Shown in pieces: positions 2,791-64,000 of a stretch of DNA of 64,000 nucleotides. Source of the DNA: a virus (lineage: Duplodnaviria > Caudoviricetes); IMG/VR virus record IMGVR_UViG_3300037502_000519, positions 1,039 to 65,038 of that record. One strand, written 5' to 3'. The stretch's first letter is position 1. Each line of letters begins with the position of its first letter. The position numbers and the translations under genes were made by a program. The notes beneath the pieces were generated by a model, which was not told the DNA's origin, did no database searches, and worked only from the letters and a program-made list of their open reading frames with translations.

Positions 2791-3090
2791 TCAGAACTTT
2801 ACAGAGTTGATGGCGTTGCTCAGCCGGTGTGAGAAGGCGGTAACAAACTTCTCGTTACGCGTCAGCTTGTGGTCCATATCAGAGAGTATGGCGTGGGTGA
2901 CCTCATGCCAGAACGTCTCCTGCACATCTTCCTTGCGGTACTTCACGTCACGGGTATTGCTGTGGGTTGCAACGTTAATGGTGCTGTTGCGAAAGCTCGT
3001 ACTACCCATAGCGCCGGGTTCATCCATCGTCTTGACCAGATTGACCTCGTACCACGTGTCACCAACTTTGATTTTCTTAGGTAGCTTCAT
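2791..3090 (-). CDS. Small zincin-like (HExxH) protein
   Basis: TFWHEVTHAIL motif; start overlaps the polA stop. Confidence 0.6.
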   Translation of the reverse strand: MKLPKKIKVGDTWYEVNLVKTMDEPGAMGSTSFRNSTINVATHSNTRDVKYRKEDVQETFWHEVTHAILSDMDHKLTRNEKFVTAFSHRLSNAINSVKF

Positions 3091-14118: not shown

Positions 14119-14147
14119 ATTATAGAACAGAGTAAAACATTTGACAA
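14119..14147 (-). promoter_or_regulatory. sigma70-type promoter for the AAA-vWA operon
   Basis: Minus strand TTGTCA (14147-14142), 17 bp spacer, TATAAT (14124-14119). Confidence 0.7.
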
Positions 14148-15227: not shown

Positions 15228-17006
15228 TTAACGCAATGCCTGAAAGGTGGCGTGGTAGAAGTAATGAGTACGGAAGTTGGTCATATAACGGAACGCTCTG
15301 GATGCACCCTCCATGTCACCATACGAACGCACGAGATCCCGCAGGGTAACGAAGCCAACGACACGCTCGTTGCCGTAGTCATCCATGAACCGTGGTGCGT
15401 TGAGATACGCCTCGGCAAATAACTCCGGCATGTCATCACCCCACACGATTGTCTGGTAGGGGAACCCTTCGACAGTATCAGGCGCAACCACTACGACACC
15501 CACCGCACTGTCTGCGTCTGACTCGTGGAAGTACACCTGACCCTCGGCATTGTTGATCACCTCGACGGCGTCATCGGTACGCATCCAATTGCCATTGGGG
15601 TCTTGCACGCACTCATCGATATGCCGATAGTCACCGTCATGCTCGCAGTACACGATGTCGTAGTAGTCAAGGTACTGGTCATGATAGTACTCGCCGTCGG
15701 TCTCACAGAGCACGCATGAGTCGCTCTCGATATGGTCTTCGTTGCCACGCCGTGAGTGTGCCCACAGGTATTGATCAGAACAGCACGAACCGATGCGTAT
15801 GCCGTGGTAGTCAGAGTAGTTCATCTCATCCTCGTCCTCATCTGTGTGACGCCCACACACCTCGCACATGCCACCTATGCGATCCGTCAGCCCGTTGGTA
15901 TTGGTCGCACTGCTCCTGTGCTCACCGTCGGAGTTGGCAACCAGCCAGTACCGCCTGCCATCGATCCTATGTATGCTCACATGCTTGTCATTGCCATCGA
16001 TGTAGGGCATGACATACTGCCCGTCGTCGTGCTCAACCACAAGCAGGCGTGGGTCGTATTGGTACACAGACTCTCGCCGGTAGTCACGCTCCAGCAACAT
16101 ATCGAGCAACGCGTTGGACTCATCACCGTAGACGCGAACGAAGTGCGCCTTGGCAGGATCATCAGGGAACGCAACGATGGCACGCGCCACCACACGGTCG
16201 TCCATCACGCGGTCAGTCAGCCACGCCAGTGCAAAGTCACCAGACGCATAGACCCGCGCTGGATGTATCTCACTGTCGAACGAGTACACATCGCCCTGCA
16301 TACACGAGGCCAGACCACACTCATCCTCACGGATACTGTAGATAGCCTCGAAGTCATCCGCATCCTTGGACATATGGAAGTCCAACTGCTTGACGCCATC
16401 GGCAAGAGAACGGATCTGGTTTTGTGTCAGCGTCTCACCGTAGAACTGTGTGAGGTAGCGTCCGACCTTTGTGCGCACCTGACGGTCACGCTTGCCGTAC
16501 TCAGGCGATGGGGTATAGGCCACCATCGTGGGGTCTTCGGTTGATATGTGTGGGAAGTGCCACCACAGGTGCGGGTTGTCCTTGCCTATCTTGCGTAGCG
16601 TTGCGAGAAACGCAGGGGGTTTGTAGTACTCCGTCACGAAGCGTGCGTTCTCACGCCACACCCAGAACGCAGACTCAGGCATCGCCTCACGCATATACGC
16701 AATGGTGTTAGCGATACGAAACGCCGACCGCTTGTCACTGTCGTCGATGTCGGAGCCAGACTGATACGCCTCGCTGAGTTTGCTTGCGAAGTCATACCCG
16801 TTGAACCTCGGTGCGTCAGCGCCGAACACCGGCTCGCCGTCGACCTGTATTTCGTGGATCAGCTTGCCATTGCCAGGTTCGTTGCGCACACCGCCGTCGT
16901 CGTACAGATTACATATGCGCGTGAGGTGGTAAAGCTCGTCAGTGGTAACGGTTTGCAACACTTGTAGCAAAGCATCTTTGGAATCTATTTTAGACATGAT
17001 GTCCAT
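15228..17006 (-). CDS. Large acidic hypothetical protein with Cys/His-rich repeated C-terminus
   Basis: 592-aa ORF with strong SD; SCM...HP..VY...ARAI...RVYG...PYID core. Confidence 0.8.
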   Translation of the reverse strand: MDIMSKIDSKDALLQVLQTVTTDELYHLTRICNLYDDGGVRNEPGNGKLIHEIQVDGEPVFGADAPRFNGYDFASKLSEAYQSGSDIDDSDKRSAFRIANTIAYMREAMPESAFWVWRENARFVTEYYKPPAFLATLRKIGKDNPHLWWHFPHISTEDPTMVAYTPSPEYGKRDRQVRTKVGRYLTQFYGETLTQNQIRSLADGVKQLDFHMSKDADDFEAIYSIREDECGLASCMQGDVYSFDSEIHPARVYASGDFALAWLTDRVMDDRVVARAIVAFPDDPAKAHFVRVYGDESNALLDMLLERDYRRESVYQYDPRLLVVEHDDGQYVMPYIDGNDKHVSIHRIDGRRYWLVANSDGEHRSSATNTNGLTDRIGGMCEVCGRHTDEDEDEMNYSDYHGIRIGSCCSDQYLWAHSRRGNEDHIESDSCVLCETDGEYYHDQYLDYYDIVYCEHDGDYRHIDECVQDPNGNWMRTDDAVEVINNAEGQVYFHESDADSAVGVVVVAPDTVEGFPYQTIVWGDDMPELFAEAYLNAPRFMDDYGNERVVGFVTLRDLVRSYGDMEGASRAFRYMTNFRTHYFYHATFQALR

Positions 17007-17171
17007 GTTGTTTCTCCTTGTGGTTAGTTTATTAATACGACAGCATCATCAGGATGATGTAGAACAGGCCAAAGGCAAAGGCCAGCCCCATCACCCCCAT
17101 GAAGTCTATGAACATGGCGCGTAACTCCTGCGCCCTGCGGATACGCCTACGGCGTTCGGTTGAGTTGACCC

Positions 17172-17716: not shown

Positions 17717-17814
17717 CTCACACCCCCCACATATTTAAAAGAATCAGCCCACCGCATACGGTGAGCACTAGGAAATAAAACACAAAGATCATCTGTCCCA
17801 TGGTTGTTTCTCCT

Positions 17815-17982
17815 TTACTGTGGTTTCTTTACATACGGCACGAGTGGTGCGCCTTGATATAACTCATGCAAGATCGCCGCAAGCTCCTCGGGATCGTCGG
17901 TCTTGTAGAGCAACTGCTCGTCGGCATACAACTCGTAATAGTCATCATTGGTCCGCTTGATGATCATTTTTTCTACGGTCAT
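17815..17982 (-). CDS. Small hypothetical protein (MTVEKMI...)
   Basis: AAGGAGAAACAACCATG leader. Confidence 0.55.
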   Translation of the reverse strand: MTVEKMIIKRTNDDYYELYADEQLLYKTDDPEELAAILHELYQGAPLVPYVKKPQ

Positions 17983-18075
17983 GGTTGTTTCTCCTTTGGT
18001 TGTGCGGCAGAAGTAGACACTTGAACAGAGCCGCCTGCCGCGTGCGGTCTGTCGGTACAAATTAAGAGCGTGAGG

Positions 18076-18726
18076 TTATGCGGCGCGTTGGTCTGGTTCT
18101 TCGTCTCTGTGCTCAATCGGCACGCGCATGGCTCCGAAAATATCCACGACATACACCTGTTTTGGCGCCGCAATCCTGTAAAACTTTGACAGAATTTCAG
18201 ACGCATCGTCTTCTTTAATTAGTTTTTGCCAGCATACGGGCGCGGCTCGCGCCGTGCGCTTTAGCTCTTTCATCCGTACGAGCATCAATGTCGTTTGCCC
18301 TAAACAAGTTTCTAGGAAGTTTTTTATCTCCGGCGTTGGCGCTTTTTTAAGTCTGCGGTTTATCGTGCGGCTAAGGTTTTTTAGTTCGGATATGACCGGC
18401 ACAAATTGAGGTGCTCTCCGGATACGCAAGGCGCGTATCGCTCCAGCCTTTAACTTTGCCTTGCCGTGTTCAACACGGCTCTTGACTAGCTCCTCGATGA
18501 TGAGCGGATGCACCCCCTCGTTTACGAGCTTCTTTCGGTATTCGCCAGGGGATAGGTCTTTGGAATGCCGCGCGTGCTGTTTGCTACAGGTGTTGCAAAA
18601 CGATCCGACATACTCCATGCGACGCGTAGCGTCGGGGTTTCGGAGCCATGCGCGGGTTTGCGCAAGGGTGGCTACACGGCGGAAATCTTTGGTTTCTTTT
18701 TCAGTTTCACAGTTTGGGCATAGCAT
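18076..18726 (-). CDS. Basic protein with CxxC...CxxC zinc finger, probable start MLCPNC
   Basis: CPNC and CNTC pairs; SD GAGG. Confidence 0.65.
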   Translation of the reverse strand: MLCPNCETEKETKDFRRVATLAQTRAWLRNPDATRRMEYVGSFCNTCSKQHARHSKDLSPGEYRKKLVNEGVHPLIIEELVKSRVEHGKAKLKAGAIRALRIRRAPQFVPVISELKNLSRTINRRLKKAPTPEIKNFLETCLGQTTLMLVRMKELKRTARAAPVCWQKLIKEDDASEILSKFYRIAAPKQVYVVDIFGAMRVPIEHRDEEPDQRAA

Positions 18727-19042: not shown

Positions 19043-19127
19043 GAGGGTCTTTTTTGACCCCTCCTTACTGCCAGTAAGTTTGTGATACGCAAAGCAAGGA
19101 GGGGGTTTGCTACATCTGTTGCAAAGC

Positions 19128-19295
19128 TCAATCGTCGGCCCCTAGGCGGTGCTCTAAGCCGCTCTTCCAGGTGGGATCTAGGCGGTACTGCTCTTTGAGT
19201 CTCTTCCGCTTGTAGGCCTGAATAGGGGCCTTGCTGGGCTTGTCGGTTTTGACGAGGTTGCGGGTGGTGCGTGAGTCTTTGAAGGTTTTGGACAT
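19128..19295 (-). CDS. Small basic protein MSKTFKDSR... (55 aa, not in ORF track)
   Basis: Hand-translated; AAGGAGATTCAACCATG leader. Confidence 0.55.
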   Translation of the reverse strand: MSKTFKDSRTTRNLVKTDKPSKAPIQAYKRKRLKEQYRLDPTWKSGLEHRLGADD

Positions 19296-19322
19296 GGTTG
19301 AATCTCCTTAGATGGTTGCGAG

Positions 19323-19499
19323 TTAGATCCATTCGCCGTTGATGCGAACGAGTGCGCCGTACTTGGCTTTGTGCTCAGCCTTCAGGCGGTGCAGGGTTTG
19401 GAGGGCTTCGCCAATGTCGGCGTCATTTCCCCAGTGGCTTGCATTGAGGTAGTTAGCATAAGCGGTGGTAATGGCGCGGATAGAGTCTTGGTAGTTCAT
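19323..19499 (-). CDS. Small protein MNYQDSIRAI... (58 aa, not in ORF track)
   Basis: Hand-translated; AGGAGATTCAACCATG leader. Confidence 0.6.
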   Translation of the reverse strand: MNYQDSIRAITTAYANYLNASHWGNDADIGEALQTLHRLKAEHKAKYGALVRINGEWI

Positions 19500-19601
19500 G
19501 GTTGAATCTCCTAGTGGTTTGTTTTGCTACAGGTGTTGCAAAGAGGTTTGGAATAGGCGCGAAGCATCCCGCGCCACTCGTGAGCCGCACAATCTTGTCA
19601 A

Positions 19602-19991
19602 TTACTTGATGCGAGCGAGGAAATCTGCGCGTTGTTTTGCGGTGAGATCCCAAAAGCCTGCTACCAATTCACTGACAGGATCTTTGCGGTTGACATCGCG
19701 CGCACCGCCTCGGTTACTGCGAACGCGTTTGTGATACGGGTCAACCATTCGGCCCCATTGCATCTGCGCGGCGGCGTGCCGCTCGCCTTGCGCATCCTTA
19801 AACTTCCACGCGCCGTCTTTGTTTTGTTCCACCGTGCATGAGTAGGCGAGCGCGTGCTCTTGTGCCAATGCCTCCACGAGTGCGTCAGGTAGTGAACCGT
19901 CTTTGCCTAGATGCTTTGTGATCATGTCGCGTACGGCTGAGCCACTGTTAAGAAAGGTGCGATAGGTCTTGCGCTCTGTTGCGTAGTTCAT
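19602..19991 (-). CDS. First early gene, hypothetical (MNYATERK...)
   Basis: AGGAGAAACAACAATG leader. Confidence 0.7.
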   Translation of the reverse strand: MNYATERKTYRTFLNSGSAVRDMITKHLGKDGSLPDALVEALAQEHALAYSCTVEQNKDGAWKFKDAQGERHAAAQMQWGRMVDPYHKRVRSNRGGARDVNRKDPVSELVAGFWDLTAKQRADFLARIK

Positions 19992-20075
19992 TGTTGTTTC
20001 TCCTAGTAAGTTTGCTACATGTGTTGCAAAGCCAAGCGGCGATGCAGTCATCGGGCCAGCCCCAATGACAACTAC

Positions 20076-20084
20076 ATTCTAACA
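20076..20084 (-). promoter_or_regulatory. Extended -10 promoter for the early operon
   Basis: Minus strand TG-T-TAGAAT, about 85 nt upstream of the first early ATG. Confidence 0.5.
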
Positions 20085-20386
20085 TAATAGGTTTTTTTGC
20101 CCTGGCTCTGCCGAGGCATTTTAGGTTTTTTGCGACCCTACCCCAGGGTGGCCCCCCAATTGTGTGACGGTGCAGCGGCGCGGCAAGAACAGTGTTTCGC
20201 AACCACGCTCCACACTTTGTCAAATTTCTATCCAATACCGCTGCGCAAATCCCCCTTGCCAATCACCGGCAAAAATCCACCCCACCCCCTCGTCCCACGC
20301 TAAATACAGCAAAGGAGGAAACGCCAATGCTAAAAATATTTGTAAAAATAAAAATAGTTATTGTCAAATCTTTGACAAAGTAGCTT

Positions 20387-20429
20387 AAAAAAATCCCCCG
20401 GAGCAGTAGAGGGGGTAGCTCGACGGGGG
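20387..20429 (-). terminator. Intrinsic terminator with no protein gene upstream on this strand
   Basis: CCCCCG-UC-GAGC / GCUC-CGGGGG stem followed by AUUUUUUU. Confidence 0.65.
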
Positions 20430-20488
20430 GAAGACTGAGCGCACTCAGCCGAAGGAGAGACAACATGAAGCCCCTTGCGAGACCACAC
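20387..20488 (-). ncRNA. Candidate small regulatory RNA with anti-SD/anti-AUG seed
   Basis: TTGTAC-16-TATACT promoter (20522-20495); GNRA hairpin; unpaired UCAUGUUGUCUCUCCUUC; second hairpin; GC stem plus U7 terminator. Confidence 0.55.
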
Positions 20489-20546
20489 GCCTAGAGTATA
20501 CACTCACCCCCACTAGGTACAACCCTATGCTTCGGGAGACCCCCGC

Positions 20547-21143
20547 GTGTTAGAACATTTGTTGGAGATCGAGTACGAACCCGAGGTGCTGACTGCACCC
20601 AGAGAATCCTTTACGCCTGAGAAAAAGCTCTCGGCAACAGATCTGCTGCAAGGGCAGATAGAAACGACGGACTGGTTAGAAGAGTTAGGCGCGCGTACGG
20701 ATGAAGAGGTGCTCCAGACAGCGCAAGAGAATCAGGCCCGTGATGCGTTTAAGGCATTGGTGGCAACACCAGCCGAGGCAAAGAACGCGGTGGCGAAAGT
20801 CACTGTACCCCCGGCGGTTAAGAAGCTGGTTGGGATGCTGACCGCCTATGACTGGGCGTTTGTTGAGCAGGCTAAAGAGATCCGGGGTATGGCGGTGGCT
20901 AAGATTTTGGAGGAGACCGACCACCCAGACGCCAGAATCCGTCTAAAGGCGCTAGAGTTGCTAGGCCGCGTGACGGAGGTAGGGCTGTTTACGGACAGGA
21001 TTGAGGTGAAGAAGACAGAATTGTCTGATTCAGAGTTAGACGCCAAGATTAAAGAGAAGCTCCTAGCTATACAGAATACGATTGACGCGCCGAAAGACGA
21101 CGAGAACGTCACAGACGTAGAAGAAAATGAACCGTCTGAGTGA
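20547..21143 (+). CDS. Probable terminase small subunit
   Basis: Immediately upstream of terL; RLKALELLG...VGLFTDR motif. Confidence 0.6.
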   Translation: MLEHLLEIEYEPEVLTAPRESFTPEKKLSATDLLQGQIETTDWLEELGARTDEEVLQTAQENQARDAFKALVATPAEAKNAVAKVTVPPAVKKLVGMLTAYDWAFVEQAKEIRGMAVAKILEETDHPDARIRLKALELLGRVTEVGLFTDRIEVKKTELSDSELDAKIKEKLLAIQNTIDAPKDDENVTDVEENEPSE

Positions 21144-22647
21144 CGCGGAGATCCAGAATCTGCTGGCAGGCATGACGCCACAGCAGAAGTACGAGTTTTT
21201 AGAGGAGTTGGAGGAGCAACAGAGGCGTCTGCGGTTAAAAAACGCCCGTGGGGACATGATTTCCTTTGCCAAGGAGGTCTATCCAGGGTTCAAAGAGGGG
21301 GCACACCACAGGAAACTGGCGAAAATCTTCGCAGATGTGGCCTCGGGTAAGAAAAAACGCGTGATTATCAACATCGCGCCCCGTATGGGTAAGTCAGAGT
21401 TCTCCTCTTACCTGTTTCCTGCATGGTTTCTGGGGCAATACCCAGAGAAGAAGATCATTATGGCGACCCACACGGCGGGGTTGTCGGAGGATTTTGGTAG
21501 GCGGGTACGAAATCTGATCGAGGGGGAGGACTATCGCAATGTATTCCCAGGAACTCTTGTGGCAGATGACCAAAAAGCGGCAGGGAAATGGTCTACATCG
21601 GCTGGCGGTCAGTATTACGCCGTCGGTGTGGGCGGCGCTCTCGCAGGTCGCGGTGCTGATCTCTTTGTTATTGACGATCCTCATTCAGAACAGGACATAA
21701 AGGCGAACTCCAGGGCTACGTTTGATAATGCGTGGTCGTGGTTCCAGACTGGTCCGTTACAGCGTCTGATGCCAGGGGGTGCGATTCTGGTGATTATGAC
21801 GAGGTGGTCGTTGGTGGACCTGACGGGTAGGCTTTTGACGTTTCAGGCGAGAAACCCAGACGCAGATCCGTGGGAGATCGTAGAACTGCCAGCTATATTG
21901 TTTGAGAACACGGAGCGGGAGAAGTCGCTCTGGCCCGAGCAGTGGCCCGTGGAGCAGCTAAAGCAGAAAAAAGCTGCGATGGACCCGAGGTATTGGAACG
22001 CCCAGTATATGCAGCAGCCCACGGCAGACTCGGCTGCGTTTATTAAGAGACAGCATTGGAGAATTTGGGAGCACGACGATCCACCGCCATGCGAGTTTAT
22101 TATTCAGTCCTGGGATACGGCGCACGAAGCCAAGACCACCGCTGACTATACGGCGTGTACAACCTGGGGTGTCTGGTATAACGAGGAAGAGGGTAACAGG
22201 CCAAGTCTGATGTTGCTCGATGCGTTTAAAGACCGGATGGAGTTTCCAGAGTTAAAGGAAGTGGCGTATAAACAGTGGAAAGAATGGAACCCAGACGCGT
22301 TTTTGGTGGAGAAGAAGGCGGCAGGTGCGCCGTTAATACAAGAACTGCGTAGGATGGGGATACCGGTTGATGAGTTCACACCAAGCCGGGGTAATGACAA
22401 GATAGCGCGGGTCAACGCGGTAGCAGATCTTTTTGCAAGCGGGTCGGTCTGGGCACCAGATAGGCGGTGGGCCAGAGATGTGATCGAGGAAGTGGTTGCG
22501 TTCCCAGTCGGGGAGCACGATGACTACGTGGACACGATGACGCAGGCACTGTTACGCTTTAGAAATGGTGGGTTCATTACGTTGCCTAGCGATGAACCAG
22601 ACGAACCCAGATTCTTTAAATCAGGCCGCAGAGCGGCGTATTACTAG
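21127..22647 (+). CDS. terL: Terminase large subunit
   Basis: APRMGKSE Walker A, IDDP Walker B, MTRW, SWDTA nuclease, HDDYVD. Confidence 0.95.
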   Translation: MNRLSDAEIQNLLAGMTPQQKYEFLEELEEQQRRLRLKNARGDMISFAKEVYPGFKEGAHHRKLAKIFADVASGKKKRVIINIAPRMGKSEFSSYLFPAWFLGQYPEKKIIMATHTAGLSEDFGRRVRNLIEGEDYRNVFPGTLVADDQKAAGKWSTSAGGQYYAVGVGGALAGRGADLFVIDDPHSEQDIKANSRATFDNAWSWFQTGPLQRLMPGGAILVIMTRWSLVDLTGRLLTFQARNPDADPWEIVELPAILFENTEREKSLWPEQWPVEQLKQKKAAMDPRYWNAQYMQQPTADSAAFIKRQHWRIWEHDDPPPCEFIIQSWDTAHEAKTTADYTACTTWGVWYNEEEGNRPSLMLLDAFKDRMEFPELKEVAYKQWKEWNPDAFLVEKKAAGAPLIQELRRMGIPVDEFTPSRGNDKIARVNAVADLFASGSVWAPDRRWARDVIEEVVAFPVGEHDDYVDTMTQALLRFRNGGFITLPSDEPDEPRFFKSGRRAAYY

Positions 22648-52458: not shown

Positions 52459-55400
52459 ATGCGCACAATTCAAGTTCCTGGCTACGGCCCAGTTAAGTTC
52501 CCGGAAAGCATGTCAGATGAGGAAATTGCGCTTGCAATTGAAGAAGACATACTGCCGAACATAAAACCGCCCAAGGAAGGTATTGGGGCTGCGTTTACCG
52601 GTGGCCTAAAGCGGATGGCGTCAACAGCGGGTACTGGCCTAGAAGCGCTACTGTCCCCTGAAGAAGCAGCTAAACAAGGTCTTGCTAGATCTGAAGCCAT
52701 TGGACGAGAGTACGCCCCCGGTGCTAGTTTAGATGCGGTAAAGAAAGCATACGCTGAACGTGGGCTGCTAGGTGGTGCTGGTGAAGTTATTAGTCAGATC
52801 CCCACTGCCCTGGCTGAGCAGGTTCCGCAGATTGCTGCCACGTTAGGTAGCGCCAAGCTCGGCGCTATGGCTGGTACGGCGGTCATGCCTGGTGTTGGTA
52901 CGCTCATCGGCGGTGGTATTGGTGCTGTTGCGCCATCCCTGTTACAGCTTTTTGGTTCCAACATTGAGCGTCAAGCCGCAGAAGGTGCGCCTGAGATTTC
53001 TCGTGGGGCTGCTGCCGCTGCTGCTATTCCTGGTGCCGCGCTTGAAGCCGCATCAACTTTTGTGCCGTTGGGCAAATCTATAGTAGGGAAACTACTAGGG
53101 CCAGCCGCAGAAGAGTACTTTAAACGTGGGGCAACGGAAGCCACCGAAGCGGTGGCCCAAGAAAGCCTGAAGAAAGTTTTAGCAAAAGGCGCGGCAGTCG
53201 GTGCTGCCGTAGAGATCCCCACAGAGATTACCCAGCAGATGCTAGAGCGTCTACAAGCGGGACTACCCCTTACTACTGATGATGCGTTAGCAGAATACGG
53301 TGAAGCCGCGTATGGCGCTGGGCTTGTGGGCGCTCCGTTTGGTGCGGCTGGTCGTGCAGGCCAGCGGTCTATTGCTCGTGGCGAGATTGAGGCAGAAGAA
53401 GAGAAGGTTAGGTCAGAAGCGCTTGCCCGTGAAGCCGAAGAAGAAAAAGCACGGCTCGTATCGCCGGAGTACCGGCAAGAGTTGAACGCCCAGATGGTAG
53501 AGAAGAAAGACCAACTTCGGCAGTTGGAAGCGCTTCTTAAAGACAAGACCGTAGACGAAGACGTACGGACAGAAGCCAAAGATACTGCAAAGACGTTGCG
53601 CAGAGAGCTTGGTGAACTCGACGCAAAGATGAAAGCGTCGATGAAAGAAGCCGGTATAGCCCCGACTATGGAAGGCACGCTGGCACGTAAACAGCGTGTA
53701 GAAGCCCAAGAACAAACCGTCACAGACGAGTTTGGCAATATTGTCAAGGTTAAAGGCAAACCCATTACCGCAGAAGAAGAGGCGGAAGGGTACGAGCGGC
53801 AATCCGAAGCTGTGCTTGCAGACTTTAGGGAGCGTGAAGAAGCCCTTGAGCGTTTACGGGAGAAGGAACGCCAAGAAAAAATCAAGAAAGACGAAGAACT
53901 CCAGGCTGGCGTAAAGACTTTCTTACAACAAACAGAGGAGATGGCGGAACTAGAACCCGGCGCTGCTGTTGCTACCCGTGAGTTGGCAGAAAAAAGGCGT
54001 ACAGAAAAAGATCAAGCCGCCGCCCAAGAGATGACGCTGAATCGTATCCAGCTTGTTCTGGATAAGTTTGGTTTACGCGCTGCTGGTGTGCCGCAAGAAC
54101 AGCGTCTGGACATTGAAAACAAGATAAACGAAGGCCGGGTAGACCGGACTGTTACTAACGTACTTGGAATAAAAGGTTTAGGTGGGCGTACTGTCTCGGC
54201 GACTGATGCACTGCCAAACATTCAAACGCGTATCCAAGAGTTAGAAGACCGGCGGCAAAAAGCGATTACCACCAAAGACCCGTTGATGTTGGATAACGGA
54301 CAGCTTACGGACAAAGGGTATGACCTTGTTGCAACAGAAGCAAAACTCAACGAGCTTCGCCGTTTACAGACTGTTGCGCAGTCCCAGGCCCCCACAGAAA
54401 CGCCTACTGAAACCGGTATGGTTGGGCAGTTAGAAGCTGCTACCCAGGCCAAGGCAGAGGCTTTGGCAGTACCAGAAGCGCAGGGGCTACCCAAGTCAGC
54501 CTACGCAGGTCGTATAGATGGCGCTAACAAAGCGGCGGGGCGTGCGTTTACCGACCTTCTGTCCTATATGGACGACTACAGAGCCGGTCGGTTCTTTGGC
54601 GAGGGCGCTGCTCCTGGGCAGCTTGGGCTGGCAAGTTCTACGCGTGAGGGTTTACTGACCCAATCTAATGAGATGCGTAAGAACGTTGTTGACGCAGTGA
54701 TCCAAGAAGCCGCGCTCATGCGTGGACAGCAGGGTTTACGCCCTCTTACCCGTGACGAAGCCATTGGCCTTGGTGTTAGGGTTGATGAGATTCTGCAAGA
54801 GATCATTACGCGCAGTACCGCGTTACCCAGCCGCGCGTCTCTAAAAGAAGTCACGATCTCCCCTGCACAGATGCGGGGTACAGAGATCATTAAGTCTGCC
54901 AAAACTGCTTTGGTTGACCCGCGCCCCCTGGCTGAGCGCCAGTTTGGCAACCCACGCCGTGCTATTGAGGTGCTTGCAGAGGCCATTAAACAGGCAAAAG
55001 AGCAGACCGTAGCGGAAGGCAAACGCACTGTTCGGGCTGAGCGCCCAGTTCTGCGTCAACAATTCCAGGGGTACCAGCCAGCAGAAAGCCGGTTTGCCCA
55101 GGGCGACCGTCTTGTAGATCAAATTGCCCAGATTCTTCGTACGGCTGATGCCGATTCTGCATTTGCTAAGACGCTTGATGATGCGGCAACCCTGATTGCT
55201 AACGAAGATGTGAACCCCACATTTTTAAATACCGTAGATGAACAGGTGGGCCGCATCCTACGTGGCACCGATAAGCCTGATGATTCTGCTGCGCTGATTG
55301 CCGACATCCAAAAAGACATGGACCAGCAGCGTGCGCTACGTGCGTATGTTGAAGATACTGGTGCCCAGGCCGAGATGTTCCCTGAGACAAAAGGCACCAT

Positions 55401-58400
55401 ACGCGCCACCCCCGCGCAGTTCCAGCGTTTGCAGAAGTCTGCCAAGGTCGAGAAAGAACGCGCTGCGATTGCCCGAGAAAAGGGTGCGGCGGCACAAACA
55501 CGCAAGGCGATGATTGAGGCTAAGCGTGAGGTTGACAAAGAAGCTGCGGCAATGGATGACAAGATCGCAGACAAAGAGCGGTCGATTCTGAAGAAGATTA
55601 ATGACGCCATTCTTGAGATGGCAGGCCCAGAAACAAAGGGCAGCTTTAGCGCCAAACAAGAAGAAGTGACGCGTGCACTACAGTTCTTGACCCGTGATGA
55701 GTCTGCTACGGCTGCTAAGTTAGCCGCTGCTGACAAAGACATCCAGGCAGAAATCAACGAACTGAACAAGATGCGTGAGCGTGCTGCGCAATCAAAGCGT
55801 GGGTCGTTAGATCAGCGTGTTGCTGCCACCAACATACAGAAGCAGCGCGGCATGATTGCCAAGGCCAAAGCCGCCCTTAAAGACGCTAAAGAAAAGTCTG
55901 ACAAGGTCAAGCGTGAGCGTGAGGAAATGATCCAACGCGGCGCGCGGCTGGAAGGCCAGCGGTTTATCAAGAAATCACGGGAAGAGCTACTAAAAGAATT
56001 GCTTGCCGCTAGGAAAGCTAAGAAACCTGGCGAAAAGATTAAGCGCCCATCGTTGTACAAAATTGTTCCCATAAAGAACCAGGCCGATTTAGAAGAAGAA
56101 CTTCGGCAACAACACCTAGATGAGATCAAAGGTCGGCGGGCGCGTGCAATGTCTCCTGGCGAAGTTATGCTCAAGACGCGGACGGAAGAAGAACAGGCCC
56201 GTCGAGAAGCACGCGATGCTACCACTCGCCTAAACAAGTTTACAAAAGACGTACAGTCCGGCAAAGAACCGCAGGATTTTGCTAAGTACAAAGAACTTAG
56301 TCAGGCTGTGGACCGTGCACGCGCTAAGTTAAAAGACCTGCGCGACAACATCAAGCTGATGAAGGCGGTGGACTACGATCCAGATAACGTCCCGCGTAAC
56401 GCCCCGATCCGCACAACAAAAGGCCCGGTAAAAGAAACTGAACGGCGCTACACAACCGACCAGATCTTTGACCTCATGGGTGAGCGTGGGCGGATGACAG
56501 GCGGCAAGTCGTACTCTGTCGATGATGTGCCTGACTTGCGTGTGGGGGATACAGAACCGACTGGTGAGATTGACGTTGCTGCGGCTAAAAAGTATCTGGC
56601 AGACGTCAAGAAAAAGGCCACAGAACGCGGGATAAAGTTTAACTACTACCCGCTAACCGAAGTGTTGCCGCCCCAGATCCGGCAGGCCATTGAGGCGCTG
56701 GGACCATACGCCAAGTACGCTAAAGGCGGCGTCATGCCCAATGGTGAAGTCTTTGTTATCATCGACGGGCATAGCACGCTGAAAGAACTAGAAGGCACCG
56801 TTGCACACGAGCTTATCGGGCACGTTGGCTTTGAAGGTTTTGTTGGCGAGCAGGGCATGAAAGATCTTCTTAAGAAGGTCGAAAATGCTTTTGGCAGCGT
56901 GTTTAAGATGGCGGATGCTATCGGCGTTGGGCGTCAGGCAGAAGACGCCGCAGTTGCTTTGTGGAAAATTGGCGCTGACAACGACCGTGCAAAACTGCAA
57001 GCGCTACGCGAAGCCATTGCCTACACGATGGAGAAGCGGGTTGACCAGTCGTTCTTAGAAAAAGCTAAGCGCTGGATGCAGGAGCTTGTTGGCGCGTTCC
57101 GGTCTGCGTTGAAGAAGCTGGGGTTAGCTGACACGTCTAAGATGACGACGTCCGACTTGTTCTACCTGATGAAACAGGCAGACGCTAACTTCAAAGCCAA
57201 CAAGCCTATCGCTACGTTTACCCCTGATGGGTATGCGTCGTTTAGCGTTAAAAATGTTGACAACAAAGGCATAGCATCCCTGATTGCCCAGCGTGGTACG
57301 GCGTTTGATAAAGCCAAATCTTTCGGCATGGGTATCACCGGCTTGCCGGGGCGTGTGCGTTTCCTAGATCGGTTTGCGGCTTTGGATGCCCTCGTCAAAC
57401 AAGGCGTGACAAGGGGGATCATCTCCTCCCTAAAAGCAATGGACGTCATGTACTTCAACCGCATGGCAGACCAGCGTAACAACTTTGTTGCCCAGTTTGC
57501 TACAAGTGGGGTTGGCAAGATCACCAGCAAAAACGGTGAGCTTATGTATGATGGCGGTGAAGGGCCGGGTCTGCGTGATGTATCTGCGGCGCTTGCTAAA
57601 TCTGGTCTGCCGTCTGACAAAGTGGAAGCTGAATTTACCTCCTACTTGGTTGCCCTCCGTGCAGATCGGGTTGGCGTTAACAAGCTGGACTTTACGGGTA
57701 AGCGCGTTACTGAGAAAGAAGTTAAAGAGACGATTGCCAAATACTCTGGCAGCGACCCCGCCAGCCTAGCGTTCAAAGAAGCACGGAAACTGTACCAGCA
57801 GTACAACGACAACTTGGTAGATTTTGTGGTCTCATCTGGCGCTCTGTCTGCGGAAAAGGGTGCGGAACTAAAGAGCTACAAAGACTACGTTCCGTTCTAC
57901 CGTAAGCGTGGCAATGAAGTCACGATGGAGATCCTAGGTGAAGGCTTCATCCGTATTGGCGACCTGAAGAACCAGCCCTACCTACAAGAACTGGTCGGTG
58001 GCAAGACAGAAATCCTGCCGGTGTTCACCAGTGCGCTGACCAACACGTCGACTTTGGTAGATATGGCGCTGAAGAATATGGCTACGCGCAACACCGCGTA
58101 CGTCATGCAGGATCTTGGCATTGCCCGAGTCTACGAAAAAGCTGGCAACGCCAGCCCTAACGTCCTTCGGTTTAAGCGCAATGGGAAAGAGTTCCACGCC
58201 ACCATAGACACCGAGGCTATGGAGAAGTTGTTTGGCGACATTCCCGTCGAGTCGGTTATCCAGGGGCTAGAAGGCACGAAGGCGGTTGTCAACGCAGGCG
58301 TGAAGCTGTTGGGTTTGCCTGCCAACTGGCTGCGCAAGTTCGTCACACGTGACCCCCGCTACGCAATTCGTCAGATCTTCCGGGATTCTATGGCGGCAGT

Positions 58401-59799
58401 TATGACCACAGGCGCTGACTTTGTGCCGGTGGTACAGACGCTAAAAGATATGTCCACCATGAAGAAGACGGGCGCAATGGAGACATTGCAGAAACGTGGC
58501 GTTTTGGGTGGGCAGGTTATCGTTGGTGCCACCGACGATATGAGTAAGATCATGCAGCAGCTTGCGTCTGGTAAACCTGGTTGGGATATGGCGATGGCGA
58601 AGCTCGATGAGTTCGCCATGATGGGTGACGCGGCAACGCGTGTCTCTATGTACAACTCGTTCTTAAAACAGGGGTTGTCGGAGCGCGAAGCAACGTTTGC
58701 CACGCTGGAAGCCATGAACTTTAGCCGCCGTGGTACGTCACCCACCGTGCTGTACGCCAACACCTTGATACCGTTCTTTAACGCTGGCTTGCAGGGCTTG
58801 GATGTTATGTACCGGGCCTTTAAGGGCGACATGCCTGCTAGTGAGCGGTTGAAGGTAAAGCAGAAATTGCTTGCCCGTGGCGGCATGATGGCGCTCTTGA
58901 CCCTTGCATACGCCGCCATGATGGACGATGACGAGACGTACGAGAACGCAAACCCAGAAGAGCGCTATGGCAACTGGTTTGTACCTACGCCGTTTGGCAC
59001 GTTCCGGGTACCGATTCCGTTTGATCTCGGCCTAATCTTCAAGGCGTTGCCAGAAGGCGTCTATCGCGCTATGTTTACTGACGACAAGGCGTCTGATGTT
59101 GCTGGTGCATTGAAGTCTCTTGCCGCACGCAGTATCCCTATCGACATTCCGACGGCTATAAAACCGGCAATAGAACTAGCGCTCAACAAGTCGTTCTTTA
59201 TGGACCGCCCAATTGTTGACCCCAGTATGGAAGGCATAGACGCACAGTATCAAGTTAAGCCCAAGACGCCGGAGATCATTAAGCTGTTTGGGCAGATTGG
59301 GTTGTCGCCTGTGCAGGTGGAGTACGCCCTGCGCGGCTATACGGGTAGTTTGTTAGTCAGTACGCTCAGGTTATTTGACCCTGTGTTGGGCGGTGAGCTT
59401 GTGAAGCCGGGCCAGAAGTTGCCAGACTTCCCGATTCTTGGCGGTCTGTTCCAGCCCAAGGATGCCACGGGCATCATCAACTCTGCCTACGAGACTGCCA
59501 AACAGATACAAAACGCCCAACGTACGTATGCTAGGTTAAAGATCGAAGACCCGGATGAAGCGAAAGCCTTCTACGCCGAGAGCCGGTCTGATATAGAAGG
59601 CGCACGGGCGGCTGGTCGGTTCCGTCAGAGAATGGGTGAGTTCACCAAGGAAGAGCGGCTAGTCCGGGCACAGCGTAGTCTGACCAATGACGAGAAGGCC
59701 GAGCGCCTAGATAAGATTCGGCAGCGGAAAATCGACTACGCCAAAGACTTCAAGAAGCGGATGGACGAAAGAAGAGAACGCCCAGCCGCCCTTGCCTGA
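52459..59799 (+). CDS. Giant internal virion / polyvalent-type protein with zincin (HExxxH) and LPD38-like C-terminus
   Basis: 2446 aa; AHELIGHVG; YVPFYR; NFSRRG...IPFFNA; RVPIPF..G; KP.IE...N.SFF..RPI. Confidence 0.75.
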   Translation: MRTIQVPGYGPVKFPESMSDEEIALAIEEDILPNIKPPKEGIGAAFTGGLKRMASTAGTGLEALLSPEEAAKQGLARSEAIGREYAPGASLDAVKKAYAERGLLGGAGEVISQIPTALAEQVPQIAATLGSAKLGAMAGTAVMPGVGTLIGGGIGAVAPSLLQLFGSNIERQAAEGAPEISRGAAAAAAIPGAALEAASTFVPLGKSIVGKLLGPAAEEYFKRGATEATEAVAQESLKKVLAKGAAVGAAVEIPTEITQQMLERLQAGLPLTTDDALAEYGEAAYGAGLVGAPFGAAGRAGQRSIARGEIEAEEEKVRSEALAREAEEEKARLVSPEYRQELNAQMVEKKDQLRQLEALLKDKTVDEDVRTEAKDTAKTLRRELGELDAKMKASMKEAGIAPTMEGTLARKQRVEAQEQTVTDEFGNIVKVKGKPITAEEEAEGYERQSEAVLADFREREEALERLREKERQEKIKKDEELQAGVKTFLQQTEEMAELEPGAAVATRELAEKRRTEKDQAAAQEMTLNRIQLVLDKFGLRAAGVPQEQRLDIENKINEGRVDRTVTNVLGIKGLGGRTVSATDALPNIQTRIQELEDRRQKAITTKDPLMLDNGQLTDKGYDLVATEAKLNELRRLQTVAQSQAPTETPTETGMVGQLEAATQAKAEALAVPEAQGLPKSAYAGRIDGANKAAGRAFTDLLSYMDDYRAGRFFGEGAAPGQLGLASSTREGLLTQSNEMRKNVVDAVIQEAALMRGQQGLRPLTRDEAIGLGVRVDEILQEIITRSTALPSRASLKEVTISPAQMRGTEIIKSAKTALVDPRPLAERQFGNPRRAIEVLAEAIKQAKEQTVAEGKRTVRAERPVLRQQFQGYQPAESRFAQGDRLVDQIAQILRTADADSAFAKTLDDAATLIANEDVNPTFLNTVDEQVGRILRGTDKPDDSAALIADIQKDMDQQRALRAYVEDTGAQAEMFPETKGTIRATPAQFQRLQKSAKVEKERAAIAREKGAAAQTRKAMIEAKREVDKEAAAMDDKIADKERSILKKINDAILEMAGPETKGSFSAKQEEVTRALQFLTRDESATAAKLAAADKDIQAEINELNKMRERAAQSKRGSLDQRVAATNIQKQRGMIAKAKAALKDAKEKSDKVKREREEMIQRGARLEGQRFIKKSREELLKELLAARKAKKPGEKIKRPSLYKIVPIKNQADLEEELRQQHLDEIKGRRARAMSPGEVMLKTRTEEEQARREARDATTRLNKFTKDVQSGKEPQDFAKYKELSQAVDRARAKLKDLRDNIKLMKAVDYDPDNVPRNAPIRTTKGPVKETERRYTTDQIFDLMGERGRMTGGKSYSVDDVPDLRVGDTEPTGEIDVAAAKKYLADVKKKATERGIKFNYYPLTEVLPPQIRQAIEALGPYAKYAKGGVMPNGEVFVIIDGHSTLKELEGTVAHELIGHVGFEGFVGEQGMKDLLKKVENAFGSVFKMADAIGVGRQAEDAAVALWKIGADNDRAKLQALREAIAYTMEKRVDQSFLEKAKRWMQELVGAFRSALKKLGLADTSKMTTSDLFYLMKQADANFKANKPIATFTPDGYASFSVKNVDNKGIASLIAQRGTAFDKAKSFGMGITGLPGRVRFLDRFAALDALVKQGVTRGIISSLKAMDVMYFNRMADQRNNFVAQFATSGVGKITSKNGELMYDGGEGPGLRDVSAALAKSGLPSDKVEAEFTSYLVALRADRVGVNKLDFTGKRVTEKEVKETIAKYSGSDPASLAFKEARKLYQQYNDNLVDFVVSSGALSAEKGAELKSYKDYVPFYRKRGNEVTMEILGEGFIRIGDLKNQPYLQELVGGKTEILPVFTSALTNTSTLVDMALKNMATRNTAYVMQDLGIARVYEKAGNASPNVLRFKRNGKEFHATIDTEAMEKLFGDIPVESVIQGLEGTKAVVNAGVKLLGLPANWLRKFVTRDPRYAIRQIFRDSMAAVMTTGADFVPVVQTLKDMSTMKKTGAMETLQKRGVLGGQVIVGATDDMSKIMQQLASGKPGWDMAMAKLDEFAMMGDAATRVSMYNSFLKQGLSEREATFATLEAMNFSRRGTSPTVLYANTLIPFFNAGLQGLDVMYRAFKGDMPASERLKVKQKLLARGGMMALLTLAYAAMMDDDETYENANPEERYGNWFVPTPFGTFRVPIPFDLGLIFKALPEGVYRAMFTDDKASDVAGALKSLAARSIPIDIPTAIKPAIELALNKSFFMDRPIVDPSMEGIDAQYQVKPKTPEIIKLFGQIGLSPVQVEYALRGYTGSLLVSTLRLFDPVLGGELVKPGQKLPDFPILGGLFQPKDATGIINSAYETAKQIQNAQRTYARLKIEDPDEAKAFYAESRSDIEGARAAGRFRQRMGEFTKEERLVRAQRSLTNDEKAERLDKIRQRKIDYAKDFKKRMDERRERPAALA

Positions 59800-59968
59800 C
59801 GCCTACTAGCGCTTTGGCATCCAGTACACGGTTGCCTAGCGCGGCGTTCAGGCCAGCCATTCTGACCTTTTCTGTGTCGAGGCAGGGGATAAAAAACCCC
59901 TGACCTCTATGCAGCTTTGTCCAGGGGAACAGGGTCTTCTTCAACTTTCCGTGAGATCCGCATCGCAT
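59750..59968 (-). CDS. Small hypothetical protein
   Basis: FPW..L..GQGFFIPCLD motif; follows the primase gene. Confidence 0.55.
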   Translation of the reverse strand: MRCGSHGKLKKTLFPWTKLHRGQGFFIPCLDTEKVRMAGLNAALGNRVLDAKALVGVRQGRLGVLFFRPSAS

Positions 59969-62786: not shown

Positions 62787-62801
62787 AGACCCCCCTCTGG
62801 T

Positions 62802-62957
62802 TTATTTTTTGGTTTCTGCCAGCTTCTCTAGCGCTTCTTCGTACCGCGCCAAGAGATCTTCCTGCCAAGTTTTTGGCAAGTTATTTGTGATAAGTATCTG
62901 GTAGCAAGTCCGGGCGAACTCTGCATCGGTCAGAGTTTTAGGTTGAATGTCGTACAT
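62802..62957 (-). CDS. Small protein MYDIQPKTLTDAEF... (51 aa, not in ORF track)
   Basis: Hand-translated; SD GGAGG; fills the gap between HTH and primase genes. Confidence 0.55.
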   Translation of the reverse strand: MYDIQPKTLTDAEFARTCYQILITNNLPKTWQEDLLARYEEALEKLAETKK

Positions 62958-63211
62958 AGAATCCTCCACGCGTCATCAGTTTGAGACGTTTTTTTCAGCA
63001 CTTCGACAATTTTGCTAACACGCTCCTGATACGCAGGGGTGACCTCTGTTGCTCCTGTAAACCAGTTGTATACAGTCTGCCGTGTGGCACCAGTTAGCGT
63101 TGCGATGCGCTGCATCGAAATGTCCCGTACGACAGACCAGCGCCCAAGGTCAGTGCCCAGGGACGGCTGTGTCTTTCCTACGAGGGTTTTTATTTTTTCA
63201 GAGTAGGGCAT
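62930..63211 (-). CDS. Cro/XRE-like HTH regulator, probable start MPYSEK
   Basis: ISMQRIATLTGATRQTVYNWFTG HTH. Confidence 0.75.
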   Translation of the reverse strand: MPYSEKIKTLVGKTQPSLGTDLGRWSVVRDISMQRIATLTGATRQTVYNWFTGATEVTPAYQERVSKIVEVLKKTSQTDDAWRILCTTFNLKL

Positions 63212-63220
63212 AGGTAGAGG

Positions 63221-63309
63221 TGGGGTACTAGCACAGGATTCATTTGCACCTTTTGCCAAAGGATACAGGCTATTTAACGTCGCCGAGCCGACGCCTGTAC
63301 GTTCCCCCA
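63221..63309 (-). ncRNA. Candidate structured RNA with bulged-G (loop E) motif
   Basis: UGGGG-GAAC-GUACAGG ... CCUGUGC-UAGUA-CCCCA enclosing two hairpins. Confidence 0.5.
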
Positions 63310-63315
63310 AGTTGA

Positions 63316-64000
63316 TTAATCGTCAGTGTCCCAATCCGCTACGACAGAGGATAACTTACTCTTTTTAGGAGCGGTAGCCTTTTCCTCTTTACGAACCTCG
63401 GGTTCTTCAACTTCTTCCTCCTCCGGCTCGGCCTTGGGCTTGGCTTTGGCCTTCGCGGCTGGGGGTTTACCCTCAAGCGCTACGGGGGGAGCGGTTACCT
63501 TGTCGGTCTGCGCTACGGTCATGGTGATCGCCTTGGTGGCGTCATCTGTCTGGCCCTGCCGCACACAGGTCTCGTGCTCGTCGTCCGTAAGCCAGCGCAT
63601 AGGCTTGAAGAACAACTTTGGCGACTGTGCCTTGGTGTCGAACTTCATCCGCGTCACGACCATATCAGGCCCAATGTTCTGGGCAATCAGCCAGCGTGAA
63701 TACGCCTGCAACGGGCGGTTGTCGCCCTCTTCCTTACCAAAGATCGACTGCGCTGGCAGGGTAAGCTGAAGCACGTCGCCCTCGATGTCGTTTGCCAGCA
63801 CCACAGCAACACGCTGAGAGAAACGGCAAGCACGGGATTCGCCACTACCAGAACCCTTGACGTTTTGTGGGCATGTAGCGCACGTGTCGGACTGCTTGCT
63901 CGTAGCAGTGGGATCGGGCTTGTCGCCATCGGCAGACCAGCAATCAGGACCAGCCGGGGTATCGGGGTCGTACGCCTTCATGTAGAACGTGCGGCTGATC
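63316..64000 (-). CDS. Probable ssDNA-binding / recombination protein, 5' end outside the window
   Basis: P.CWS.DG..P...C..CP.N..GS....RACR; acidic tail ending DWDTDD. Confidence 0.6.
   Translation of the reverse strand, partial: ISRTFYMKAYDPDTPAGPDCWSADGDKPDPTATSKQSDTCATCPQNVKGSGSGESRACRFSQRVAVVLANDIEGDVLQLTLPAQSIFGKEEGDNRPLQAYSRWLIAQNIGPDMVVTRMKFDTKAQSPKLFFKPMRWLTDDEHETCVRQGQTDDATKAITMTVAQTDKVTAPPVALEGKPPAAKAKAKPKAEPEEEEVEEPEVRKEEKATAPKKSKLSSVVADWDTDD

Follow-up and report, generated by a model that had tools for sequence, protein, structure and literature searches.

The 64,000-nt window analyzed here (bases 1039-65038 of the Caudoviricetes record IMGVR_UViG_3300037502_000519 in IMG/VR, which comprises 65,038 bases and is rated 100% complete) contains, on its minus strand at 20387-20522, a unit that is very probably a genuine small-RNA gene. 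On the evidence of sequence comparison, the unit is a representative of a conserved, previously undescribed small-RNA family of an uncultured phage clade, and it is present in over a hundred related phage contigs. Its most conserved part is a short CU-rich box that is complementary to the type of Shine-Dalgarno (SD) leader carried by the minus-strand genes. The RNA may work by masking such early-type ribosome-binding sites, a mode of action to which slightly less than an even chance is given.

The labels "early" and "late" denote the replication module (minus strand) and the virion module (plus strand), respectively, and are assigned from gene content only. The minus-strand genes occupy 1-20051 and 59907-64000 and include those for a family A DNA polymerase and a DUF927 primase-like protein, while the plus-strand genes span 20547 to 59799 in an order that begins terS, terL, and portal. 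The small-RNA unit sits in the 500-bp region in which the two modules diverge.

Architecture of the unit

An initial annotation of this region had proposed a promoter, hairpins, a seed, a terminator with U7, and a divergent promoter, and every one of these features is found at the coordinates given below. The promoter of the small RNA consists of a -35-like hexamer, TTGTAC (20517-20522), which falls within the loop of a plus-strand hairpin in the terS leader, a 16-nt spacer, and a -10 hexamer, TATACT (20500-20495); transcription would begin at about 20488, ~7 nt past TATACT. Hairpin 1 has the core GGUCUC-GCAA-GGGGCU (20469-20484), with a GNRA loop and three G-U pairs, and a weak lower stem lengthens it to about 20491-20462. 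Between hairpins 1 and 2 lies the seed of the initial annotation, UCAUGUUGUCUCUCCUUC (20451-20468), and with it the single-stranded CU box (20452-20459), which reads CUCUCCUU in the window and UUCUCCU(U/C) in the family consensus. Hairpin 2, GGCUGAG-UGCG-CUCAGUC, occupies 20433-20450 and is followed by the intrinsic terminator (20387-20430), a GC-rich stem (20430-20395) with seven U residues (20393-20387) that is evident both from folding and from a consensus promoter/terminator scan. RNAfold returns all three hairpins with GUCUCUCCUUC, including the box, unpaired, at a minimum free energy (MFE) of -40.7 kcal/mol. A search of 19500-21500 against Rfam 15 (both strands, E ≤ 10) found no family that fits the unit and only two matches, which are weak, unrelated, and located elsewhere.

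The terminator loop had also been matched to the primase leader. The complement is present in that leader, but the loop differs in every relative, and the match is for this reason taken as chance and the pairing discarded.

Conservation and covariation

Relatives were collected through terL. A search of IMG/VR with this gene found at least 599 stretches, of which the best 80 loci (72-99% identity) were used. Similarity detectable by blastn in the intergenic region is confined to 10/80 of these loci, and blastn of 19900-20700 against 50,697 phage GenBank records gave no match. Upstream of terS in the 14 closest loci, the layout is unchanged while the hairpin sequences are different. Units were located by means of the conserved 10-mer AGT(A/G)TA(C/T)ACT in 53 loci, which yield 49 distinct units. 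Each folds with hairpin 1 behind a short 5′ tail, then the box UCUCCU and hairpin 2, and at the end a GC-rich terminator followed by U6-U9; a T run is found downstream in 56/57 distinct units. Hairpin 1 is often GCAA-capped (22 times among 48 units, with GAAA in 2-3 units), and some units have an additional inserted hairpin. In L055, L059, L074, L049, and L064, a structured insert of 30-100 nt lies within hairpin 1, with the box, hairpin 2, and terminator unaltered.

Alignments of the units by MAFFT were inconsistent with the structure, and RNAalifold on the 44-sequence alignment retained only 3 terminator pairs. For this reason, a covariance model, R1, was built from a two-sequence alignment of L065 and L076, which are distant relatives, with 22 pairs assigned by hand, and the rest were aligned by Infernal. 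Over 85 sources, R1 gave 64 matches at E ≤ 1: a single syntenic match just upstream of terS in 60/80 terL-related loci, all on the minus strand, and four weaker second sites ~280 nt further on in four related loci. On the whole records of five relatives, it gave one match each (5/5). A motif scan of IMG/VR found at least 118 stretches, and R1 verified 53/79 newly listed loci, some of which sit on contigs already in the sample; since our own rough estimate puts chance matches to the scan pattern at several hundred, only these verified loci were counted.

The hairpins of the initial annotation are borne out by covariation, as Infernal alignment of the regions upstream of terS shows all three to covary. 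Pair counts on the R1 alignment are generous because the alignment was model-fitted and the sequences are related; they give changes on both sides in 21/22 model pairs and 92.5% of cells paired, versus 66.6% in shuffles and 40-54% with partners slid. The covariation score is 0.476 versus 0.144, and 0/500 shuffles reach the observed score. Both sides changed in 9/9 pairs of helix 1 (89.5% of cells paired), 5/5 pairs of helix 2 (87.1%), and 7/8 pairs of helix 3, the terminator (97.2%). An alignment-free comparison, in which the arms of a hairpin were swapped between relatives, roughly halves stability overall: native and swapped energies are -11.7 and -5.9 kcal/mol for hairpin 1, -5.6 and -2.3 kcal/mol for hairpin 2, and -16.5 and -10.6 kcal/mol for the terminator.

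Although it is flanked by two variable hairpins, no part of the RNA is better conserved than the box. Its T-C-C is invariant and TCTCCT is at least 90% conserved in the 44-sequence MAFFT alignment, and the box 7-mer occurs with at most one mismatch in 47/49 distinct units. Some clades have variant boxes, namely UUUUCCUUU (L057, L058, and L063), UCUCCA (L056, L071, and L078), CAUCCUU (L040), and UUCCCUU (L051). The 7-mer is wholly unpaired in 22/47 full-length MFE folds, and elsewhere mostly just its first 1-2 bases are paired. The seed as originally drawn is thus conserved in part: the box UCUCCU(U/C) is kept family-wide, but the CAU portion is lineage-specific and, in the window, lies partly within the lower stem of hairpin 1.

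That an intergenic stretch merely resembles a promoter, hairpins, and a terminator by chance is hardly credible. The fold of the window unit alone would allow it, being only modestly unusual (z = -2.18; 6/200 shuffles as stable), but chance is contradicted by a layout that is kept, with covariation, over more than 100 contigs. Other points do weigh against the reading as a gene. The window's own element is not among the R1 matches at E ≤ 1, and its 99%-terL twin, L002, has an E of 0.82; the window unit is therefore placed in the family by its synteny, by the motifs it shares, and by intermediates that form a chain to it. The kinship of the sequences and the model-fitted alignment stand behind the pair counts, and the promoter TTGTAC-16-TATACT was missed by the consensus scan that flagged the terminator because its weak -35 agrees in only 3/6 bases.

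The nearest cultured relatives by terL, at 47-53% identity, are the Pelagibacter phages HTVC027P and HTVC023P, phages DSL-LC04 and 023Pt_psg01, Synechococcus phage MinM2, and Planktothrix phages. R1 has no match in four cultured-phage regions upstream of terL, and the gene order there, read in two regions, differs from that of the window phage. Among genome bins, terL relatives occur on nine metagenome-assembled genome contigs of unrelated phyla (L216-L224), with the labels Elusimicrobia, Phycisphaerales, Rhodocyclaceae, Terrimicrobiaceae, Chitinophagales, Burkholderiaceae, Kaiserbacteria, and Gammaproteobacteria. Most likely, these are phage contigs that were put into bins by mistake, which makes the bin labels useless as a guide to the host.

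Strand of the RNA

Folding energy, G-U pairs, and the U run agree with the initial assignment of the RNA to the minus strand. Compared with its complement, the minus-strand RNA folds more stably in 41/49 distinct units (mean -36.4 versus -31.4 kcal/mol; Wilcoxon p = 1.5e-7). G-U pairs account for 175/1323 pairs on the minus strand and 53/1167 on the plus strand, and the three G-U pairs of hairpin 1 in the window would become C-A mismatches if read on the plus strand. The U run is confined to the minus strand. Where GAAA takes the place of GCAA, the loop retains its GNRA class and loses the plus-strand TTGC.

The conserved features could instead act on the plus strand or as DNA, either as a ribosome-binding site and 9-codon mini-ORF (open reading frame), MKPLARPHA, upstream of terS, or as protein-binding or packaging sites beside the terminase genes. 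This is very improbable. The sequence AAGGAGAGACAACATG is indeed a textbook initiation region, and a plus-strand ATG stands 3-10 nt (mostly 4-6 nt) past the box complement in 24/57 distinct units, at ideal spacing from the SD and above our rough chance estimate of about 12%; the 10-nt palindrome described below also exceeds a usual -10 in conservation and might be the binding site of a dimeric regulator. However, 33/57 units have no ATG at this position, and the peptides that start from the existing ATGs vary between relatives in both length and sequence. The initial annotation had itself named MKPLARPHA as the alternative, and this ORF is not conserved. Across the 57 distinct units, there is no conserved ORF on either strand; a minus-strand ORF of 67 aa begins at the non-conserved ATG position and continues through the terminator. 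Folding energy, G-U pairs, and the U run favor the minus strand, stems that change yet stay paired indicate RNA structure rather than a fixed protein site, and the scan flagged no plus-strand promoter upstream. One reading of the ATG excess is that, in many lineages, the RNA may mirror an entire initiation region. A packaging site was rejected, as related contigs that are near-complete have their ends elsewhere than at the unit.

Complementarity of the box to early-gene leaders

The complement of the family box is AAGGAGAA. Its plus-strand form, TTCTCCTT, occurs 15 times in the window versus 1.58 expected; 12 copies are sense AAGGAGAA for minus-strand genes, and 1 is sense for a late gene. By pattern count, the 12 minus-strand leaders lie at plus-strand coordinates 1667, 6196, 6535, 6750, 7251, 7871, 8396, 11749, 14086, 17012, 17808, and 17989. 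The best match, found by a 17-mer search and among repeats, is the leader AAGGAGAAACAACATG (17003-17020, minus strand) of a 592-aa gene (15228-17006). When up to 3 mismatches are allowed, the seed 17-mer matches only itself and 17004-17020 in the window, versus 0.18 expected. This leader belongs to an 18-nt repeat family of six copies (17003-17020, 17799-17816, 17980-17997, 19293-19310, 19497-19514, and 19989-20006). On the minus strand, the six copies take the form (A/T)AGGAGA-N2-CAAC-(C/A)ATG, with a spacer as uniform as the SD.

The leader type that the box complements is a mark of the minus-strand genes in the window, as the initial annotation held, and in the genomes of four relatives as well. 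The base after GGAG is A at 11/11 early and 2/13 late starts in the window (Fisher p = 3e-5) and at 104/162 early and 26/89 late starts over all loci (Fisher p = 1e-7), where the late sample covers few gene families. AGGAGA is present in 11/38 early and 0/46 late start regions of the window, and the corresponding counts are 8/37 and 0/37 in relative G004, 11/40 and 1/26 in G003, and 5/33 and 2/33 in G002. In relative G001, the box is UUUUCCUUU and AAAGGAA leaders are found in 7/27 early and 1/30 late start regions. Because the pairing energy of a generic 16S tail is equal at early and late starts, this bias is one of SD flavor and not of SD strength.

The flanks of the box contribute early-specific complementarity in 4/5 genomes. 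Seeds with shuffled flanks and an intact core equal the real seed on early leaders in 0, 0, 15, 2, and 0 of 200 cases in the five genomes and on late leaders in 9, 82, 137, 19, and 119 of 200. As to co-evolution of seed and leaders, which the initial annotation had put forward as a check, box and leaders changed together in G001, while a genome's own seed is the best of five in just 2/5 genomes; support is weak.

This last figure is one of several that tell against masking of early ribosome-binding sites. The duplex energy over all starts does not differ significantly between early and late (p = 0.15-0.38), and only the excess over the 16S control does (p = 0.027). The window box, CUCUCCUU, has a C where GGAGAA leaders need a U and is one base worse than the consensus box, and part of the extended seed is buried in the stem of hairpin 1. 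The uniformity of the leaders could stem from duplicated leader cassettes rather than from selection for pairing, and strong SD leaders will match any anti-SD-like sequence. Furthermore, gene starts were taken from a crude ORF rule, and the assignment of early and late by gene content is a weakness.

The RNA may also be real and have another job, which we consider unlikely. It would then pair with host mRNAs, or its CU box and U-rich 3′ end would capture or titrate a protein (an RNA chaperone, ribosomal protein S1, or an RNA-binding protein of the phage, for instance), and its likeness to early leaders would be secondary. All of the evidence for a conserved structured RNA fits this explanation equally well, the conserved stretch is short (6-8 nt), and the co-evolution of seed and leaders is weak. 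It does not sit well with a box complement that is strongly enriched at the phage's own early, not late, starts in five genomes, with flanks that bring early-specific complementarity, or with the one lineage that altered box and leaders together.

Separate from the leader repeats, an imperfect 20-bp palindrome, TTTGCTACA-NN-TGTTGCAAA, is found at 16951-16973, 18579-18601, 19105-19127, 19522-19544, and 20010-20032. All five copies, one of them inverted, fall within the 3 kb with which the early module opens, and they may be operators or RNA hairpins. The copy at 20011-20030 is directly upstream of the leader CTAGGAGAAACAACAATG, whose start is at about 19991, and the first early gene more likely starts there than at the ATG at 20051.

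Promoters and leaders around the unit

The pseudo-palindromic 10-mer AGTATACACT (20495-20504), which has no other exact copy in the window, contains two -10 hexamers, overlapping by 2 bp, that belong to divergent promoter-like sites. One site is that of the small RNA; the other would direct transcription toward terS on the plus strand and combines a TTGCGA -35 (20475-20480), an 18-nt spacer, and a TACACT -10 (20499-20504). In many relatives, the 10-mer is perfectly palindromic (AGTGTACACT), and both strands then read a TA(C/T)AC(T) -10. The -35 of the terS promoter is the DNA of the hairpin 1 loop, so that each -35 falls in the loop of the hairpin that opens the opposite transcript. The -10 core was located in 35/57 distinct units, a lower bound since units with long hairpin 1 inserts are missed, and among these units a TTG at 15-19 nt ahead of the -10 is seen on the minus strand in 33/35, on the plus strand in 31/35, and on both in 30/35. 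It thus appears that one promoter, that of the small RNA, is the mirror image of the other, that of the late operon, and it is from this arrangement that we infer their co-expression.

The terS leader on the plus strand (20514-20549) comprises the hairpin TAGG-TACAAC-CCTA (20514-20527), the SD GGGAGA, and a GTG start at 20547. Its stems vary among relatives with pairing preserved, as judged by eye and uncounted. Pairing of the RNA with the terS leader was considered and rejected, since the duplex energies are unremarkable (-10.5 and -12.7 kcal/mol). At the far end of the late operon, an ORF of 2446 aa (52459-59799) comes just ahead of the convergence of the two modules.

On the other side of the unit, just past the terminator, is a near-consensus early-gene promoter on the minus strand (20339-20377), with a TTGACA -35 (20367-20362), a 17-nt spacer, and a TACAAA -10 (20344-20339). 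It begins 10 to 25 nt beyond the terminator, and its -35 is one arm of the palindrome TGTCAAATCTTTGACA (20362-20377). A T(T/A)(G/T)ACA hexamer lies within 75 nt past the U run in 42/48 units and the palindrome in 33/48. The position of this promoter indicates that the early genes have their own promoter and that the terminator sets the RNA apart from this promoter.

These arrangements bear on a further explanation, which is likewise unlikely, that the unit is a promoter-proximal leader: either an antitermination cassette of the nut/put type that lets RNA polymerase pass the terminator, or a by-product of a bidirectional promoter with an insulating terminator. The order of promoter, two hairpins, and terminator, aimed at the early genes, is what such a leader would show, and hairpin 1, with its GNRA loop and a single-stranded box beside it, is reminiscent of N-binding hairpins. 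The -10 palindrome serves both strands in 30/35 units, and bidirectional promoters are described as common in bacteria in the passages of PMC12825309 and PMC10268837 that bear on them. Short terminated phage transcripts also exist, of which StxS is an example (PMC7547250, in part), and the RNA here could likewise be made without being the point of the arrangement. However, the early genes need no read-through, because a separate near-consensus promoter follows the terminator in 42/48 units. The terminators are long and GC-rich with U6-U9 tails. A by-product would not preserve a single-stranded box almost without change, nor covariation in two hairpins, and the hairpin sequences are free to vary while the box is complementary to leaders. 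A nut/put-type leader is conceivable but fits the separate downstream promoter poorly.

A few further elements surround the early promoter. Sites like TGTCAAA-NN-TTTGACA are found at 88-103, 14131-14146, and 20362-20377 (3 in the window versus 0.17 expected) and may be operators that overlap early promoters. A plus-strand ORF of 18 codons, MLKIFVKIKIVIVKSLTK (20310-20384), overlaps the early promoter, which is AT-rich, and has a strong AAGGAGG site. The mirror of its ribosome-binding site is a second CU-rich, anti-SD-like stretch, UUUCCUCCUUUG, which would be at the 5′ end of the predicted early transcript. The ribosome-binding site and ATG of this ORF are kept in the close relatives L002, L005/L006, L009, L011, and L012 and are not kept in more distant ones. 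In L041, at 2940-3040 on the minus strand, there is a second promoter (TATAAT, preceded by TG) and after it a short hairpin that resembles a terminator, with a U run, directly before the ribosome-binding site of the first early gene; weaker R1 matches are found in L036, L038, and L044. This second type of site looks like an attenuator-like leader.

A model for early-gene silencing

In the preferred reading, the unit would be a free-standing gene from which a non-coding RNA of ~100 nt is transcribed on the minus strand, starting ~7 nt after TATACT. The RNA would consist of (i) a 5′ GNRA-capped hairpin, (ii) an exposed CU-rich box, UCUCCUU, (iii) a second hairpin, and (iv) a strong intrinsic terminator, which would part it from the distinct early promoter beyond. 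Given its mirror-image promoter, the RNA may be produced alongside the late genes. The exposed box and a few bases 5′ of it would pair in trans with leaders of the (A)AGGAGA(A) SD type, and in the best cases, pairing would extend to the AUG. Since the targeted leaders mark genes of the replication module and not those of the virion module, such pairing in the cell would block ribosome binding and shut down translation of the early genes.

The initial annotation had envisaged one trans-acting RNA that silences a regulon, and possibly host mRNAs, as an early-to-late or dormancy switch. A discrete minus-strand gene and complementarity to early leaders hold up; the co-evolution is weak, and the primase match is not conserved. 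In its broadest form, the model is doubtful: a large uncultured, probably freshwater, phage clade would split its translation by SD flavor, with (A)AGGAGA(A) leaders on early genes and other variants on late genes, and an RNA that mimics the anti-SD tail and is tuned to the early flavor would silence a dozen or more early messages at the early-to-late switch. If the masking reading holds, this widespread RNA family would act by a simple logic, a single antisense RNA aimed at all early-gene leaders of one class, which would explain the uniformity of these leaders, and it would offer a compact natural design for multi-gene silencing at ribosome-binding sites. An R1-type covariance model is usable for annotating abundant uncultured phages.

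Comparison with known systems

The literature searches made in a paper library found no description of the element. Little is known of regulatory RNAs in virulent phages. Of the phage small RNAs described so far, most are prophage-derived and act on host genes, according to the relevant part of PMC12197685.

StxS is a short RNA that is ended by an intrinsic terminator right past a phage promoter and is a trans-acting regulator, as outlined in sections of PMC7547250. The window RNA resembles StxS and the short PR′ transcript of lambdoid phages in being a short terminated RNA directly after a phage promoter. StxS, however, arises as a by-product when Q antiterminates the late operon, and its targets are rpoS and stx1, whereas the window RNA points away from the late operon and has a separate promoter beyond its terminator.

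Host small RNAs such as RsaE/RoxS use C- or CU-rich seeds to mask SD sequences. They share with the window RNA an exposed pyrimidine-rich anti-SD motif, several targets (here candidates), and an intrinsic terminator. They differ in being host-encoded, with motifs that are often in loops and repeated, and the window RNA has no Rfam match.

The c4 RNA of phages P1 and P7 is processed out of a longer transcript. Short exposed stretches of c4 pair with the ribosome-binding region of a phage mRNA and block its translation (the c4 portion of PMC12197685). Both c4 and the window RNA are small phage-encoded RNAs that are directed, in the latter case putatively, against a ribosome-binding region. However, c4 serves temperate-phage immunity and a single operon, in contrast to the window RNA, which has a promoter and a terminator of its own, a box of generic anti-SD type, and candidate targets that number a dozen.

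With respect to the promoters, a pseudo-symmetric bidirectional promoter sequence can engage RNA polymerase either way, as set out in part of PMC12825309. The sites upstream of terS are alike, as features of sequence, in that a single 10-nt core gives TA(C/T)AC(T) on either strand, and unlike in that the hexamers overlap by just 2 bp and each -35 lies within the hairpin loop of the opposite transcript.

The closest functional parallels would be RegA and RegB of phage T4. RegB is an endoribonuclease that cleaves within the SD motif of early messages. RegA is a translational repressor that competes with ribosomes on about 30 mRNAs, where its sites overlap the AUG or lie just 5′ of it, according to the pertinent passages of PMC3014915. 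These two are proteins, the window element is a candidate antisense RNA, and there is no relation in sequence or structure between them. The likeness is one of proposed function, in that a virulent phage silences a set of early messages post-transcriptionally through their initiation regions, and if the model holds, the window RNA would be the RNA-only equivalent of RegA/RegB.

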